From Mytilus galloprovincialis (Eukaryota), in NCBI RefSeq assembly GCF_965363235.1, contig NC_134842.1:20157521-20221520 (forward strand): a DNA stretch of 64,000 bases, given 5' to 3'. Shown in pieces: positions 8,861 to 52,638 of the stretch. The translations under genes were made by a program, and so were the position numbers. Below the pieces are notes generated by a model, which did not search any database, was not told the DNA's origin, and saw only the letters and a program-made list of their open reading frames with translations. Positions within the stretch are counted from its first letter, which is position 1. Every line of letters starts with the position of its first letter.

Positions 8861-9504
8861 CCTTTAGTATGGTAATGGCTATAATATAACTATACAGATT
8901 GATAGACTGATTTAGTAATACCATCAATAAAGTGGAGTTAAAGTCTTATAGGATTGTAAGTATATTTTATTTTATTACCTTGCACTTTCACATTTTGACT
9001 GAACAATTTGTTCAATATTCTGACCAGTTGAACAATTTGATTTTATAAAACAAATTGCAATTTGGTCAAAATTTTGAATGAGTTGCAATTGGTGGATAGC
9101 AACACTAACAGTCAAGTCACTGTAAAACTTTAATTTATCATCTAAAAGAAATGCACGCTCTACAAAATAACTGTGTTCTCAGGCCAGAACATTTCAGAAT
9201 CCAAACAAGATACTCTGTCTATGCAATCTCCAAATATTCATTATGGTTACAAAGAATAATTTATGTCTATTATCTGTAGTGAATGGTTAAGAAAGCCATT
9301 GTATACCTGATCAAGAACAGCTGATGTAGGTTTTGTAATTGCTGGAGCTGATCCCCCTGTGGACTTCCCTGCTGTATTATAAGAGAATCCTGGACTTTTG
9401 TATACCTGATCAAGAACAGCTGATTTAGGTTTTGTAATTGCTGGAGCTGATCCTCCTGTGGACTTCCCAGCTGTATTATAAGAGAATCCTGGACTTTTGT
9501 TTAC

Positions 9505-9606
9505 CAGATCAAGAACAGCTGATTTAGGTTTTGTAATTGCTGGAGCTGATCCTCCTGTGGACTTCCCTGCTGTATTATAAGAGAATCCTGGACTTTTGTA
9601 TGTGTC
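9505..9606 (-). CDS. Candidate orphan exon encoding DTYKSPGFSYNTAGKSTGGSAPAITKPKSAVLDL. Acceptor is ctttctctttgtag and donor is CTG|GTAAAC. It is followed in the intron by two more in-frame 96-bp copies, each carrying a CAG|GTATAC donor.
   Basis: A superb acceptor and a strong donor flank the unit. The 96-bp (32-aa) unit repeats three times (9298-9600) with no stop in this frame. Confidence 0.4.
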
Positions 9607-10239
9607 CTACAAAGAGAAAGATAATGACAATCAGAAATCAGCCCTGAATTTGAGGTAATGTAAATTCTGAAATTATTGGGAGGTTTTTATTATTGCAAAA
9701 AATGTGACAGAGTTGTAAACGCAATAATTTAAACTTGCATTTTCAAATATTTTATATGAATTAAACACAAAATCTTTAAAATTAAAATTGCATTTTTAAG
9801 AAGTCTTAAATGACAAAATCGCAATAAATGCATGCAATAATTTCTGAATTTACAGTAAGTAAGTAAAATAAAATAAAACAATAAAGACAACAACACCCAT
9901 CAATAACCGCATGGTAAGAGTTTATTCTGGTCGACATGCTTAGCCAACAAGTAAGTAAGTAAGTAAGTTAGTTTTATTTAAAATACAAATTAACACAGTA
10001 AACATGAATTCTGTAGATCTCTTAGCCAAGGTGATTCCTCTTCTCATTTAGAATGCAAAAAAGACAATTAAAGAATATCAGTACCTTACCCTTGACATTG
10101 AAGTTTTATTTGACAAAAAGATTGATCTGAGTTCTTGTTAGTAGCATGGCTGTTTGGGACCATCAAAACTGTAATGTAAATTTACAACTTTTTATCTTTT
10201 AAGGTAATTTCTTTGAAAAATCATGAATCTCTAAATGAG

Positions 10240-11400
10240 TAGGTACGGTAAGGGCCGATTTTGGTCTCAAATGTCACTTTTCAGATGGTTTTTGTCAAAA
10301 ATAAAAGCGACTGCATCCATGTCCATCCTCAACCTTTAAATATGTTATGTATTATTATCGTCAAATACAACTTACATTTCAATATTAAGAAAAACACAAA
10401 TGCAGCCACTTTCATTTAAGACAGAAACCATTTAAAATTTAACACAAGAGGCTGTCACAACGACAGCAAACCGGATTTATTAACATTTATTTGTGTCCTG
10501 GCAATATCACAAGAACCATTACTGATGAATGGTGAAAGTGAAAATCGTCAATATCAAATTTGACCTCCATTTTGTCATCAGTATCAACATATTAAAATTT
10601 GAAAAGCTTAGATTGAATGGTTCATGAGTAAATGCAACAACCTGAATGGAAACGCCATTTTACGATCTTTCAAGAACCATAACTCCTGAACGGTAAAAGT
10701 CAAAATCGTCATTATTGAACTTGACCTCTATTTTGTCATCCATAACAACATATTAAAATTTCAAAAGCTTTGGTTGAATGGTTCATGAGAAAATGCACGG
10801 ACACGACGGGAAACACCATTTTTCAATCTTTCAAGAACCATAACTCCTGAACGGTAAAAGTCAAATTCGTCATTATTGAACTTGACCTCCATTCTTTCAT
10901 AAGTAACAACATATTAAAATTTGGGAAGCTTTGGTAGAACAGTTCATGCGTAAATGCACGGACAACTCCATTTTTCAATCTTTCAAGAACCATAACTCCT
11001 GAACGGTAAAAGTCAAAATCGCCATTATTGAACTTGACCTTCGAATAGTTGTCAGTAATAACATATTAAAATTTTAAAAGCTTTGGTTGAACGGTTCATG
11101 AGTTAATGCACGGACAACATTTGATTGCCACCCGCCCGCCCGCCCGCCGTACATCCCCAAATCAATAACCGACATTTTTGTCACAAAAATCCGGTTAAAA
11201 ATGCTAAAATTGTGAAGATTGTGCATTGTATTGTCAAAAACAGCCCATATTTATGTAGCAGAAGCATTCTACTTTCCAATAAATAACTAAAAGTTTACAT
11301 TTTAATAGTTTTGTAAAACTGCTATATTTTGGGGCCAAAAATGGGTCTTACTAGACCAACTTCGTTGGAGTGATCCCATTGCATAGATCCAGTATGGCTG
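10240..11400. mobile_element. Composite repeat element. The head is shared with 27440-27800, a 150-bp tandem array of about 4.5 copies lies at 10470-11140, a (CCCG)4 run follows, and the tail is shared with 27800-28030.
   Basis: The head agggccgattt.gg.ctcaa...tcacttttcagatggtttttgtcaaaaat.aaag and the tail gctaaaattgtgaagatt...ctgctatattttggggccaaaaa.gggtcttact both recur at 27440-28030. Confidence 0.6.
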
Positions 11401-12300
11401 AATAAAAAATTCAGGTATTTTCCAAATAAATAGAGGGATTAAAGCTGGTTTTATAGATAGCTAAACTTCCCACTTGTATGACTTTTTTAACAGAGTTATC
11501 TCCCTGTAGTGTTATATACCACTTTAATCTTACACTAGATTGTAGTTCGATACAGCCAGCTACTTGTATGATTTTTTTACAGAGTTATTTCCCCCTAGTT
11601 TTTTGTACCACCTTAACCTTACTTTTGATTGTAGGGTTGGAGACCACCACATGGCAAATTCTTCATTAGACATTTATTTCACATCTTTGGGCATTGGTTA
11701 ATTTCTTATGTTTAAAATCCTCCTTCTTAAACGGAAATGCATTTTTTGAAACCTATCATGATCTTTTGTTTATAGCACATGGTCTGGAAATTTAAATCTT
11801 TATTACATTTCTCAATATTTTATAATAATTACTTTACATATAGATATTAGATGAGATTCTATTATTTCATTTGGCTAACATCAATCACATGATAATTTAT
11901 ATGTCCCGATATAAAACTGAATATTTATGTCTGCATCTGGTCTCAGTAACTATGAAACACCAACTAGTAGGAATATTTGAAATCAAACAAGATTTAACTG
12001 AGGAGGCAGGGTCAAACAATCTCCTTTGAAATGAGATGTGCCAGTGTAAAATAATAGAACTTCAACCAAATACTTGATTTTACTTGTAAATTTCTACTTC
12101 AGCATTCAAGTATATATATAAGGATTAAATGTAATTTATTTTTGGAATTTTATAGGGTTGAAACAGTTTGACCACTGCACCATTATATACAGTATATACA
12201 CACTTGTGTTCTTCCAACAAAATGTGCTTCTATCAGTGGTTTTATACTGAAAATAAAATAAACAGTTATTAGAATTTTGAAGTGAACTATGAACTCACAC

Positions 12301-15467: not shown

Positions 15468-16810
15468 TCAATGAAAATTGGTATCCAAGAAAATAATGAA
15501 ATCCACAGTATCAGGATAGTCTACCTCTTTATATTCAAAGCCACCACTTGGCATGTCAGTTCTAAGAGGTAATACATCCTGGGCTGTTTTATCTTTATCT
15601 TGGTATGTATCTGCTGCTCTTTCACCTACTGGCTCACTCCCAAATAAGCCCCCATATGCCACATTAGAAGACTGAATTGAGTCAAAACTCGCCATTGATG
15701 GCGGTTTTAACTGTGGCTGCTGAAATCCAAAACTGAAACCACTTCCAAATCCACTTCCGACTTCACTACCACCACCTCCACCATATATATTTTGAGTTGT
15801 CTCTGCCTGGCTAGGAATCATCCCATATGATCGCACACTATCAAAATTAGAACCACTAAAAGGTGCACTAACACTGCTTGACTGTTGACCAAATAATTCA
15901 TTAGTTGCTGTAACCTGGCTCCCAAAACTAAAACCTTTTGGATTTAAAGGTTCATATCTCCTACTTTTAGTAGAACAACTTTTGGTAAAATGATATGGAC
16001 TAAAAGACCTGACACAAGCTGCAGATTGTTGTTGTTGTTGCTGAACCCATGGCTGAAACCTTTGCTCTTGTTGCTGAAACTGGGACTGCAACATTTGCTG
16101 TTTTTGCTTAACTTGTGACTGAAACATTTGCTGTTGTTGATGAATCTGGGGCTGAAACATTTGCTGTTGTTGTTGAACCTGGGGCTGAAACATTTGCTGT
16201 TGTTGTCGAACCTGGGGCTGAAACATTTGCTGTTGTTGATGAATCTGGGGATGAAACATTTGCTGTTGTTGTTGAACCTGGGGCTGAAACATTTGCTGTT
16301 GTTGTTGAACCTGGGGATGAAACATTTGCTGTTGTTGTTGAACCTGGGGCTGAAACATTTGCTGTTGTTGTTGGACCTGGGGCTGAAACATTTGCTGTTG
16401 TTGTTGAACCTGGGACTGAAACATTTGCTGTTGTTGTTGAACCTGGGGCTGAAACATTTGCTGTGGTTGCTGTACATTGGAACCCAACATTTGCTGTTGT
16501 TGTTGATAAACATTGGACTGCAACAAAGGTAATGGATCAGGTCTTGATGGTTTATACAAGGAATGGAGTTGCTCTACTACTAAATTTTGTTGTCGCTCAT
16601 CAAACACCTGTTGTCCTAGTTCTTGAACCTGATTCTGCACCACTTGTTGTTTTTCCTGAAACTTGGCTTTCAAATTTTCTTGTAGTTGCTGCTGAATCTG
16701 ACCCGGCAATGAAAGTGGTTGTGATCCTGATGATTGAAAAGTTGTAGAAAAAGGATCAGGTCCTCCTCTTAAACGTAATACCATATGAATTGAACTTTCA
16801 TTTGTTATTC
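15468..16810 (-). CDS. Large exon of the ubiquitin-like plus repeat protein. It completes the UBL fold (RITNESSIHMVLRLRGG). About 14 tandem 11-aa MFQPQVQQQQQ repeats (33-bp period, 16050-16500) follow, then a G/F/S-rich tail (GGGGGSEVGSGFGSGFSFGF). The TGA lies at 15468-15470.
   Basis: Acceptor is ttaattctattacag. Only this frame reconstitutes the ubiquitin C-terminal ...HMVLRLRGG. The overlapping ORFs 16115-16747(+), 16128-16532(+) and 15944-16513(-) are frame shadows of the tandem repeat. Confidence 0.6.
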
Positions 16811-17897
16811 CTGTAATAGAATTAATCATTATCTTAAACTTAATGACTTACACAACCAACGCTGGTTACTAAACATTTAGTTGCAAATTTCAAGCATACA
16901 CTAAGAACAAGAACCCTAACTAAAGAGGGTGCGCACAATTTTTCATGACGTCACAATAGGAGGATCTCAAGTTCAGAAGAAACCAAGAAGACTTCACGTT
17001 ACAATTGAATTTTGATCAACAGATATTATTAAAACTAGTGAGGAGAAATTTTTTTCACACACCAATCAAGAAATGTGTAAATAGAACAAAAATTAGAAAA
17101 TATACAAATGCATGTAGTCTATGGAAAGAATGTTATTTTCACAAATTGTTGTGTACTGACATCCTCAAAGAAATGTCACTTTGGTTGGGTTTTTTTCAAC
17201 ACAAAAAATGTGATATTTTACCAATTGCATTAAATTCAAATCTTATTTACATAGAAGTATCAAAAAATGTTTAATCTCTTTCCTTAGCTTGTTTTGAAAA
17301 AGCAATAAGTTTAATAAAACAGGAAAAGTGTCATTATCTCAAATTTTCCTGATGCAGTCATTAACACTTGCAGAAGATATTTTGTAGTTTTGGAATGAAA
17401 TCTAAGTTTATTTTTGTGACATCAATTGATAACTTTCTCTGGTCTAATGCCATAATCTTATCTTTTTGTTGATAATTAATCAACTTAGCAGACGTAATTG
17501 AATCCGTCAGGGACAAATATGGCATGAAGGCAACACCAATAAGGCCAATTGCCTAGCTTTAAAAATTATCATAAAATGATTATTACAGAGAAAATTAATT
17601 TTGACAGTATTTAACTTTTTTCTATCTGCACATTTTTGTTTTGGTCATGTCTGATCATGAATGTTTTTCTTTTTAGTGTTTAAGACAGATCTTTGACAGT
17701 AAAATATCAAAACTAACGAATTTCTAAGGAAAATTCAAAACGAAAAGTCTTTTATTAAATGGCAAAAGCTCAATTTATTTCAGAGGCTTTTGAGGTTGAC
17801 CTATATTTGAAAACTGTATATCATCCACGAAAATTTGTATCCAATGAACAATAATGAATCCACAGTAATATTAGTAGAAAACAAAATGTTAACTTGC

Positions 17898-18083
17898 TGT
17901 AATCCTCTAATGTACGACCATCTTCTAGCTGTTTTCCATCAAAAACCAATCTCTGTTGATCTATTGGGATCCCTTCTAATTCTTGTATCTTGACCTTGAC
18001 TTGTTCTATTGTATCAGAGGCAAGTAGTTCTACTCCTCCAATAGTTTTACCTGTCAGAGTCTTCACAAACAAACTTCTAGTGT
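17898..18083 (-). CDS. Exon encoding most of a ubiquitin-like domain: (D)[61 protein letters not shown]. Acceptor is tgattgtttattacag. The only frame-preserving donor is a GC donor, A|GCAAGT.
   Basis: Close match to ubiquitin [59 protein letters not shown], which is established knowledge. Joining through GC-AG to the 16810 acceptor gives DYRITNESSIHMVLRLRGG, the same length as ubiquitin DYNIQKESTLHLVLRLRGG. Confidence 0.6.
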
Positions 18084-19459
18084 CTGTAATAAACAATCAA
18101 TATACTTGTAGAAGGTCCTTTATACTTGTTTATATATGTGATATTTGTGCATATTGATTGGATGTTTATTATAAAGTCTCAAAAAAAAAATGGAAGGGTT
18201 CTGTGGAACCCAGTGTCTCGCTTTTGATCACAAACAAGCTTCTGTCCAAGTACAAATCCAGGCTAGTTTAAGAAAGTTATTAAAATTTTAAAAACTTTAA
18301 CCACAGAGTGAATGTAATGTTTCCTGGCAAAAAAACTAAGTCCATTTTTTAAGTAAAATACGGAAAAAATGTTGTTTTTTTTAAGTTTTACTTTTGGATA
18401 CTATATCTTATGATCATAAACAAGCTTCTGTCTAAGTTTGTTTGAATCCAGGCCAGTTAAAGAAAATCATTAAAATTTCAAAAACTTTAATCACAGAGTG
18501 GATATTTGTGGACGCCACCGCCGACAACGCCAAAGCCAAAGGGAATGTAGGGTCGCTATGTCTCGCTTTTTTCGACAAGTCAAAGGCTTGACAAAAAATG
18601 AGGGCAAAGCCCAGGATATCTTTGCAGTTATCATGCATTGAAATTAAAGGAACTTCATACTGTAATTTCATTGAGAGTACCCCTGGAGATAATAAAACTT
18701 AGGTAAAGGGATCTTAGTTCCATCTCAGTGGAAACATACAGTAGTGAACAAGCAAAGTTATTTGGATTGGAAGGGGTTCTAAAAAATTTCTAAACACTGT
18801 ATGCCCCTATTTTTGTTTAGGGGCCAGCTGAAGCTGAGTGCATGATTTTCTCTCTGTATTGAAGACCCATTGGTGGCCTTCGGCTGTTTTCTGCTCTTTG
18901 GTCCAGTTGTTGTCTCTTTGGCAATTTCCCATTCCATTCTTAATTTTATGTGATGTTAACAACAGCTACTATGCAAAATTTCGTTTCAAAGCACATAAAA
19001 ATAGAAAAGTAAGGAGCCGTGGTGAGATTCCAATGCGACAACTATCCACCAAAGTTCAAATGAAGTGTATGTAAACAATTATAGGCAACCATACCGTCTA
19101 AAACAATGAGAAAAAATCATACCATATAGTCTGCTATTAAAGACCCTGACATGAAAATATGAAACAATTCAACTGAAAAAACAGCCTTAGTTATAACAAA
19201 ACAATTGATAAAAAACAAATATGTTACTCAGCAACAAGCCAAAACTACAGACTTGGATAAGGCACATATGTGGCTGGGTTAGCACATACAGTTCTCATGT
19301 AAATGACTTCAAATTTCATTTTCCAATCAAACAAAGACTATAACTCCTGAATGGGAATAGTGAAAACCATCACCAACTTTAGACATCTCCTTAAATAAAA
19401 AAAACATATTTTCCCTCATTATGATATATAGTCCTTGTAATTGATATTAAACAGCTTAC

Positions 19460-33144: not shown

Positions 33145-33267
33145 CTTGACTTTAATTCTGTGTGTTGGTGAATTAACATTTCTAATATCAAATGGCATTT
33201 CCATGGCAACTTGTAAAGACAGATCACATCTTCCAGTGTCCTTGACCTTCAAAGATGTTAGCTCAGA
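33145..33267 (-). CDS. PARP4-like exon encoding SELTSLKVKDTGRCDLSLQVAMEMPFDIRNVNSPTHRIKVK.
   Basis: Acceptor is atatactttctttgcag and donor is AAG|GTAGTT. There is a weaker match to the recalled human QSFSLTMSIEMPYVIEFIFSDTHELKQ. Confidence 0.55.
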
Positions 33268-33900: not shown

Positions 33901-35460
33901 CGCACATTAATATTCAGTTCAAGAGAAGTCCAAGTCTGATCTCAGAAGATGTAACCAAAGAAAATAAACAAAATGACAATAATACATAAATAACAACAGA
34001 CTACTAGCAGTTAACTGACATGCCAGCTCCAGACTTCAATTAAACTGATTGAAAGATTATGATTTCATCATATGAATATCAGGCACAATCCTTCCCGTTA
34101 GGGGTTAAGTATCATACCATCATAACATATATGAGAAGAACATAACCCGTGTTATGCCAACAACTGTTTTTTGAATAAAGGTGTTTTGTTCTGATGCGAA
34201 GACCCTATAAGTGAATCAATATTAATGCCAAAATATGCAATCTTTAATGACCTGACAACAGTATCGTAACTATATCCCTTCTTAATAAGTCTATTTAAAG
34301 GTTTTGTTAGCTTCTGAGGTGAATACTGACATTTTTGTGCTTTATAAAGAATATTTCCATAAAAAATTGGATGTGAAATACCTGAACGTATAAGAAGTCT
34401 GCATGATGAGCTATATTAATGAATGATGGCCTTATACCGATGATAAAATTTAGTAAATGTTTTGACTAGTTTGTGATATCGAAAACTCTGGTTTAATAAT
34501 TTTTCAGTAATACATAAATTTCTCTCGTTAAAATCTAAAACATTGTTACATACACGAGCGAATCGTACAAGTTGAGATTTTAAAAAGAGTATTTGTATTG
34601 CTGCAACCCAATTATTATTTTCCTTTCATTTCCACATAAACAAACTTATAAATTAATCCTTTTCATGTTTTTAAAATTCATTTATCATTGTTTTTACTCA
34701 TTATTACAAGCTGACTAGTTAATCAAATCAAAATATTGTATTTATTATAAATCCACTAAAGACAATTATTACAGCAATCAGTGAGAAATATTATTATGAA
34801 TTTATGCTCCAAAACATGACATCAATTTAAAATATTTCCATGTGTTTTTTTGAATTTCAATAATGTATACCATATAGATATCTGAATAAGTTTTTCTAGT
34901 TTTAATACCCTAAATACTTTTTTTTATATAAAAGTAGGAAGAATATATGGGCAACCAAACTCATAGACCCAATACTACCTTTGAAAACAGGGGAGATAAT
35001 TCTTAACTTGGTACATGTTGTAATTAAAAAAAAGATCATGATGTTAATTATAATTACTGAATGCAATTTATTTGAATAACAAACAAACTTTAAAATGTTC
35101 TGCTTTCAAACATGTACTGCAGAAGCAAATATTCAAAGCAGTATTTTTTTAAAAATAAAACAAAGGCATTTAGATTGAAGCAGCTACTAACATTATGTTA
35201 TGTTTGGACTGCACATATCTGTGATTTATGAGAGCATTGTTTACCTGTGTTTTCTGAGCCAGAGCTGTATCTGTATATTTTATGAGAGCATTGTTTACCT
35301 GTGTTTTCTGAGCCAGAGCTGTATCTGTATATTTTTTGAGAGCATTGTTTAACTGTGTTTTCTGAGCCAGAGCTGTATCTGTATATTTTATGAGAGCATT
35401 ATTTACCTGTGTTTTCTGAGCCAGAGCTGTATCTGTATATTTCATGAGAGCATTATTTAC

Positions 35461-35625
35461 CTGTGTTTTCTGAGCCAGAGCTGTATCTTGTATCCATGGT
35501 GCTACTGAAGCAGGTAAACTAAATGCTATGGCTTCATTCTCTGTTTGTAATTCTGATATGTATGTTATCTTAATCAAAACTCTCGCTTGTGGAGGTAAAT
35601 TCCCTACACTAACTGTAAACACATC
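35461..35625 (-). CDS. PARP4-like VIT-domain exon encoding DVFTVSVGNLPPQARVLIKITYISELQTENEAIAFSLPASVAPWIQDTALAQKTQ. It is followed by 4 more in-frame 54-bp copies (35215-35460), each ending in CAG|GTAAA.
   Basis: Acceptor is ttgttttttatcttacag and the first donor is ACACAG|GTAAAT. It matches the recalled human DVFTVSVGNLPPKAKVLIKITYITELSILGTVGVFFMPATVAPWQQDKALNEN almost residue for residue. Confidence 0.75.
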
Positions 35626-52500: not shown

Positions 52501-52638
52501 CTTTTTAGTTACAATATATGACAGAGTTCCTCCATTTGAAGTAATTTTCTTCTTCCAAGACATTTTCTCCTTGAATGACATTGAAGATGGCAGTTGTAAC
52601 ACTACTGTATTGTTATGGAACAAACCTAACTCTCCCAT
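52501..52638 (-). CDS. PARP4-like first coding exon. The ATG at 52636-52638 sits in a Kozak-like context (caagccATGGga). It encodes MGELGLFHNNTVVLQLPSSMSFKEKMSWKKKITSNGGTLSYIVTKK. An acceptor atatttgcag at about 52663 suggests a spliced 5'UTR.
   Basis: Donor is AAAAAG|GTTAGA. It matches the recalled human N-terminus MVMGIFANCIFCLKVKYLPQQQKKKLQTDIKENGGKFSFSL. Confidence 0.55.

Follow-up and report, generated by a model that had tools for sequence, protein, structure and literature searches.

A minisatellite that repeats the end of a coding exon together with its 5′ splice site raises the question of whether the additional copies act as alternative donors, lengthening the protein each time they are used, or are simply removed with the intron. 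We address this question for a PARP4-like gene on the minus strand of a 64-kb window (the whole stretch of DNA analyzed here, to which all positions refer unless another locus is named), where a 54-bp array straddles the 3′ end of the exon encoding the VIT region, and where a prior sequence-only reading had proposed "five alternative in-frame donors". The explanation we favor, to which we assign a probability of roughly 70%, is that the array is a lineage-specific, neutral minisatellite over the exon–intron junction, with the upstream-most donor being used and the downstream copies being spliced out.

Gene and Protein Context of the Array

The exons homologous to PARP4 map to the minus strand between positions 52629 and 23164 (tblastn with five proteins), such that a PARP catalytic domain, then VIT, and then vWA are found on a single strand. 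A spliced query assembled from minus-strand open stretches retrieved 122 proteins at E ≤ 1e-10, which bear the Pfam domains PARP, VIT, and vWA and are in many cases named PARP4, and human PARP4 (PDB 11jf, 9bw6, and 9bw7) matches the partial protein with E = 1.3e-98. This species' own protein was not found in the protein database, where the best match is 73% identical; when the query included the repeat peptide, the search of 5.8 billion proteins gave no match above 73% identity and none carrying the insert. We note that the closest homologue (P0002, 73% identity) is encoded at positions 10001–11596 of locus L001 (ENA ERZ25066847, contig ctg1160), in an intron-poor PARP4-like gene of a eukaryote, on a contig of 2.4 Mb on which reverse-transcriptase ORFs adjoin the gene. 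The VIT–vWA segment of this gene is a single uninterrupted ORF of 531 codons, and the locus is for this reason uninformative on intron position.

The VIT-region exon, the limits of which were set by tblastn with homologues, extends from 35625 to 35461 on the minus strand. It comprises 165 nt (55 codons), is in phase 0 at either end, and has a translation that opens with DVFTV and reads DVFTVSVGNLPP...APWIQDTALAQKTQ. Its acceptor reads ttatcttacag/GATGTG (here and below, a slash within nucleotides or between two peptides marks the splice junction), with 35625 being the first exon base and the intron lying from 35626 on, while its 3′ end reads ...GATACAGCTCTGGCTCAGAAAACACAG/gtaaat, with 35461 being the last exon base. 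The next exon (SELTSLKVKDTGRCDLSLQVAMEMPFDIRNVNSPTHRIKVK) lies at 33267–33145 on the minus strand, and its acceptor, ctttctttgcag/TCTGAG (cag/TCTGAG), is found at 33267, where it had been placed from sequence alone.

In the partial gene model, Pfam assigns residues 26–136 to VIT (E = 2.5e-39) and places the start of vWA (VWA_3) at residue 272. The junction corresponds to residues 168/169 of this model, 32 residues past the VIT match, in keeping with the statement that the array sits just past the VIT core, and ~100 residues before vWA. The AlphaFold2 model of the partial protein has a mean pLDDT of 79.8, with residues 160–179 falling below 50, and the junction is thus predicted to lie in a probably flexible loop between the β-strands formed by residues 146–151 and 184–192. 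Because of this predicted flexibility, an in-frame insert at the junction might be tolerated, and on the model it would not obviously break the fold.

Anatomy of the 54-bp Array

The array is detected by TRF at 35225–35493 (minus strand) as 5.0 copies of a 54-bp minisatellite, with a score of 494, 96% matches, and 0 indels; it spans ~269 bp in all and starts 32 nt inside the exon. The period, the head-to-tail arrangement, and the copy number are those originally described, and the array is present where it had been located, with TRF setting its limits at the positions given above instead of at 35215–35480. Each unit comprises 26 nt of exon tail (ATACAGCTCTGGCTCAGAAAACACAG) followed by 28 nt of intron start (GTAAAYAATGCTCTCATRAAATATACAG), with the authentic exon–intron junction lying inside the first monomer. 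There are exactly five occurrences of the 24-nt exon tail ACAGCTCTGGCTCAGAAAACACAG, all of them on the minus strand and at 54-nt intervals, with the copies ending at 35461, 35407, 35353, 35299, and 35245; the number expected from 100 shuffles is 0, and the rest of the 64-kb window contains no other copy.

Immediately after the tail, the five copies read, in order, GTAAAT, GTAAAT, TTAAAC, GTAAAC, and GTAAAC. Donor 1 (CAG/GTAAAT, 35463–35455, minus strand, last exon base 35461) and pseudo-donor 2 (CAG/GTAAAT, 35409–35401, minus strand) are identical in sequence from at least −24 to +17, and use of the latter would add 18 aa (VNNALMKYTDTALAQKTQ). Copy 3 (CAG/TTAAAC, 35355–35347, minus strand) is a dead donor, having undergone a G→T change at +1. 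Pseudo-donor 4 (CAG/GTAAAC, 35301–35293, minus strand) would add 54 aa, and pseudo-donor 5 (CAG/GTAAAC, 35247–35239, minus strand), which belongs to the last copy and continues into unique intron, would add 72 aa. The array thus holds four GT donors, at 35461, 35407, 35299, and 35245, corresponding to products of +0, +18, +54, and +72 aa, with a +36-aa product being unavailable because copy 3 (35353) has lost its GT. The read-through frame is open from the exon across all copies, up to a first in-frame stop (TAA, 35172–35170, minus strand) that lies 72 nt (24 codons) beyond the last donor. The sequence-only reading was correct in describing the copies as stop-free, and wrong in stating that every one of them keeps an intact CAG/GTAAA, such that the inserts of 18, 54, and 72 residues that it listed can be formed while that of 36 cannot, and its five donors overstate a set of four GT sites of which the downstream ones are putative. 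Its observation is therefore partly confirmed, in that the repeat is real and correctly located and one detail is wrong. A Pfam search with the 72-aa repeat peptide returned no family, and an exact-match scan of metagenome contigs with a 25-mer from the junction returned 0 matches.

Within the portions that can be compared, the copies differ from one another at four points, namely +1 (T for G in copy 3 only), +6 (T in copies 1–2 and C in copies 3–5), +17 (A for T in copy 3 only), and +18 (G in copy 1 and A in the other copies), with three of the changes being non-synonymous and one synonymous in the read-through frame. The exon-derived half of the unit has 0 variable sites in 26 nt, compared to 4 in 28 nt for the intron-derived half, and as this difference is not significant (Fisher p = 0.11), we dropped the idea of selection on the exon-derived half.

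This pattern of variation also bears on the concern that the array is an assembly artefact, with its repeat number having been expanded, or the repeat having been created outright, from a single-copy junction. The differences between copies are nested, with +6 splitting copies 1–2 from copies 3–5 and with copies 1 and 3 carrying private changes, and the entire array is just 269 bp long. Furthermore, there are 20 other minisatellites in the same window, and an analogous array is found in the independent assembly of another bivalve (discussed below). Taking these points together, and with no specific feature speaking for it, we consider an artefact to be very improbable.

Identity of the Ancestral Donor

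Judged by sequence comparison, donor 1 (35461) is the ancestral, canonical, and conserved 5′ splice site. Splicing from 35461 to 33267 yields ...APWIQDTALAQKTQ/SELTSLKVKDTGRCDLSLQVAMEMPF, which aligns without a gap at the junction to human PARP4 (...APWQQDKALNENLQDTVEKICIKEIGTKQSFSLTMSIEMPY; 11jf, 9bw6, and 9bw7). In a MAFFT alignment of 22 homologues, ...TQ is followed directly by (T/S)(D/E)(V/L)-type residues, and inserts of 18 aa or multiples thereof are found at the junction in none of the 22 aligned proteins. In Solemya velum (L003), the orthologous exon begins at the equivalent acceptor, cag/GATGTTTTT, and ends ...ACCATGACACAG/gtaacactc (ACACAG/gtaaca), that is, with the same phase-0 intron after TQ and in single copy, the 120 nt that follow being free of repeats and TRF detecting no array at this junction. 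Both the tblastn with homologues and this conserved intron position agree with the exon end and first donor originally read at 35461. The orthologous VIT-exon end is single-copy also in Tegillarca granosa (L002), and because the junctions of both Solemya and Tegillarca are single-copy, the array is best regarded as a lineage-specific expansion.

We note that, in Tegillarca, the intron after the VIT exon lies 2 codons further 3′ (L002 ~2115 and 2912, compared to 35461 and 33267 in the window), with 13 residues from APW to the intron, compared to 11 both in the window and in Solemya. The conserved Cys is nevertheless reached after the same total length, and the shift may represent an apparent slide of the intron by 6 nt or, alternatively, indels that compensate each other.

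The Solemya junction is also relevant to intron gain of the kind described by the Rogers AGGT model, according to which the GT of one copy would be joined to the ...ATATACAG/ of a later copy, leaving mini-exons of 26 nt. Every unit does contain the elements for this, with CAG/GT being accompanied by a YAG (tatacag/A) after a CTCAT branch-like motif; however, the intron pre-exists at the equal position in Solemya, so that no intron has been gained, the "intron" within a unit would be merely 28 nt long and would be without a polypyrimidine tract, and each 26-nt mini-exon would shift the frame. The pre-existing intron, the 28-nt spacing, and the frameshifting mini-exons led us to reject this reading, which we find scarcely credible.

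Predicted Competence of the Downstream Donors

We evaluated donor strength as the predicted duplex energy with the 5′ end of U1, and compared the values obtained with those for the gene's own donors. All four GT copies give −8.3 kcal/mol, compared to −1.6 kcal/mol for the TT copy, while values of −5.6 to −11.9 kcal/mol are obtained for the 15 other homology-supported donors of this gene that we could locate in the window, among them AAG/GTAAAC (45421) and CAG/GTAAAA (30303). The 301-nt array RNA is predicted to fold less stably than its shuffles (z = +2.75), which led us to reject masking of the downstream donors by RNA structure. As their U1 energies are within the range of the gene and there is no obvious masking structure, the downstream sites are competent on paper, and it is plausible that 35407, 35299, and 35245 remain putative 5′ pseudo-sites.

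The equal predicted U1 pairing of the four GT sites and the unstructured RNA, together with a stop-free unit whose length is a multiple of 3 and a junction in a low-confidence, probably flexible loop, are the points in favor of a reading in which the array supplies alternative 5′ splice sites. On this reading, donors 2, 4, and 5 would be appreciably used, generating PARP4 isoforms that are longer by 18, 54, or 72 residues, with the insert consisting of a repeated (V/L)NNAL(M/I/K)KYTDTALAQKTQ in the VIT–vWA loop. This has to be set against the homologues, which are without any insert at the junction, and against the array itself, in which one of the donors is dead and most of the changes that distinguish the copies are non-synonymous; moreover, use of donor 5 would require the exon to grow from 165 to 381 nt. 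Two further considerations, the likelihood of an open frame arising by chance and the behavior of comparable arrays in human genes, are taken up below.

Chance Expectation and Genomic Background

No selection is needed to explain the array, as chance suffices. A unit length divisible by 3 has a chance of 1/3, and 54% of the 27-nt windows in the introns of this gene are without an in-frame stop, giving a joint chance of ~0.18 for a frame-preserving, stop-free unit. An expectation of ~18% is high enough to count against taking the open frame as a sign of alternative donor use. In addition, we counted the inactivation of one of the four extra donors, and the preponderance of non-synonymous changes among the four variable sites, as signs of neutrality.

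The window holds 21 minisatellite arrays in total, which cover 7.3% of it, and among the ~36 splice sites mapped, ~2.6 would be expected to fall inside arrays by chance. Two are observed, the first being the donor at 35461 and the second the 3′ splice site of a PARP-domain exon, which lies inside a 26-bp × 2 tandem duplication (46859–46809, minus strand, 92% matches). This duplication reads tttttttttatttcag/CTGATTAGAC, then tttttttttatttcag/CTTATAAGAG, and since use of the upstream AG would include an in-frame TAG, the downstream copy must be the real acceptor.

Coding minisatellites are common in the window. Further arrays with periods divisible by 3 are found at 649–1008, 1203–1298, 1472–1665, and 9299–9601 (39/150, 27, 75, and 99 bp), and these sit in long minus-strand open frames, such as a 700-aa stretch at 24–2123, with 33-aa repeats (KSPGFSYNTAGKSTGGSAPAITKPKSAVLDQVY) being encoded in a minus-strand frame at 9250–9606. 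There are also ubiquitin-like open stretches on the minus strand (15471–16847 and 17824–18096, including ...IHMVLRLRGG), after which comes a Q-rich region encoded by a 33-bp × 14.5 in-frame array at 16029–16506 (QQMFQPQVQQQ repeats).

An array comparable to the one at 35225–35493 is present in Tegillarca granosa, where the orthologue of the next exon (33267–33145) carries a 95-bp × 5.2 array with 94% identity (L002 2946–3438; GCA_029721355.1 CM056596.1). This array repeats the 3′ part of the exon together with the donor AAG/GTAAGTC five times, placing donors at ~3022, 3117, 3212, 3307, and 3402, and it is out of frame, with read-through stopping after 9 codons. The two cases are alike in affecting the same gene family at adjacent exons and in extending five repeats of an exon 3′ end and donor into the intron; they differ in that the Tegillarca array arose independently, in another exon and another species, and in that its 95-nt unit is not a multiple of 3. 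Its presence suggests that events of this kind may not be unusual in genomes rich in minisatellites, of which boundary-spanning arrays seem to be an ordinary by-product.

Comparison with Arrays in Human Genes

Boundary-spanning arrays that repeat a donor have already been described in several human genes, and the PARP4-like case is a further example, from an invertebrate. In human F7, a 37-bp VNTR is present in 5–9 copies, the first monomer of which lies over the exon 7–IVS7 boundary (Borensztajn et al. 2006, PMC1557585). The upstream-most F7 donor alone is used, the pseudo-sites becoming active only once those upstream of them are destroyed, and even strengthened pseudo-sites are still silent (PMC1557585). 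The present array resembles that of F7 IVS7 in having a unit of 10–100 bp repeated head to tail in three or more copies, in having a boundary-spanning first monomer that holds the authentic junction, in its similar copy number (5, compared to 5–9), and in its near-identical intronic pseudo-sites, with three of the four downstream monomers keeping CAG/GTAAA(T/C). However, the F7 unit combines 4 exonic with 33 intronic nt, a length that is not divisible by 3, such that most of its pseudo-sites lead to premature stops, whereas the PARP4-like unit, made up of 26 exonic and 28 intronic nt, keeps the frame and contains no stop. Donor use was, moreover, measured in F7 and is predicted here, where one copy is without a GT.

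Other human arrays behave in both ways. In IFI6 (6-16) intron 2, the authentic site is used along with the two proximal of 25 pseudo-sites, and in CBS intron 13, which has 15–20 repeats, two pseudo-sites are used besides the authentic site, while LMNB2 (100-bp unit) and PDGF intron 4 (81-bp unit) are spliced from the authentic site alone (all summarized in PMC1557585). IFI6 and CBS share with the present array its boundary-spanning, donor-reiterating nature, and they demonstrate constitutive use of proximal pseudo-sites alongside the authentic one; unlike it, they are mammalian, have many more copies, and are backed by transcripts, the present case being read from DNA sequence. LMNB2 and PDGF likewise have long donor-reiterating units, and the authentic-site-only use seen there is what we predict here, bearing in mind that these are other genes, with other unit lengths and in other taxa, and that the behavior of the PARP4-like array is deduced by analogy.

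A 2007 survey by Zhuo et al. (PNAS 104:882) reportedly covered human alternatively spliced introns derived from tandem arrays, with EST support. Those arrays and the present one are alike in offering repeated splice signals from which alternative 5′ splice sites can arise, and differ in that we are comparing a genome-wide human survey with a single invertebrate locus known from DNA.

The precedents favor the upstream-most site, and mostly silent pseudo-sites are therefore the default expectation. The use of the first site only in F7, LMNB2, and PDGF, and the continued silence of the strengthened F7 pseudo-sites, count further against appreciable use of donors 2, 4, and 5. Weighing this together with the chance expectation for the frame and the insert-free homologues, and allowing for the predicted competence of the sites, we view a functional set of alternative donors as on balance improbable.

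Proposed Origin and Fate of the Array

An AGATA motif in the exon (35488–35484, minus strand) marks one array boundary and is matched by a second AGATA in the unique intron just beyond the array (35220–35216, minus strand), the distance between the two being 5 × 54 − 2 nt. In the neutral-minisatellite scenario that we favor, the founding duplication would have arisen through replication slippage or unequal exchange between an exonic and an intronic AGATA motif separated by ~54 nt, with later expansion to five copies. Because the distance between the present motifs falls 2 nt below 5 × 54, this founding event requires a later small indel. A recent slippage-type expansion across the exon–intron boundary, which was one of the two interpretations offered by the sequence-only reading, is supported both by the 96% identity of the copies and their AGATA bounds and by the single-copy Solemya junction and the insert-free homologues, and that interpretation as a whole is partly supported.

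As a result of the expansion, the intron contains four reiterations of the ancestral 5′ splice site (35461), one of which has decayed from GT to TT while three persist. The spliceosome would take the upstream-most site, yielding the conserved protein, and the downstream copies would leave with the 2.2-kb intron, such that the expansion would be silent, or nearly so, for the protein and would evolve neutrally. We infer exclusive use of donor 1 from orthology and from the mammalian precedents; counting against exclusivity are the identity of donor 2, the equal U1 energies, the unstructured RNA, and the flexible loop. By analogy with the human cases, predominant use of 35461 is most likely, possibly accompanied by a minor isoform of +18 aa through use of donor 2, which is identical to donor 1.

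Implications

The direct importance of this finding is small. It is of consequence for annotation, as gene predictors may choose any of the four equivalent donors and thereby invent inserts of 18–72 aa; the gene model most probably correct uses 35461. A larger significance would follow if the minisatellite were an exon extension in the making, with stochastic use of donors 2, 4, and 5 producing a ladder of PARP4 isoforms longer by 18, 54, and 72 aa, which we consider improbable. Were it true, it would suggest, together with the Tegillarca array, that minisatellite-rich invertebrate genomes routinely yield raw material for alternative 5′ splice sites. Under the neutral reading, too, the locus provides a natural test, outside mammals, of how a 5′ splice site is chosen among near-identical tandem sites. 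Isoforms carrying an insert would stay in frame and should escape nonsense-mediated decay, and because all products are in frame, any minor isoforms would not be hidden by this pathway.
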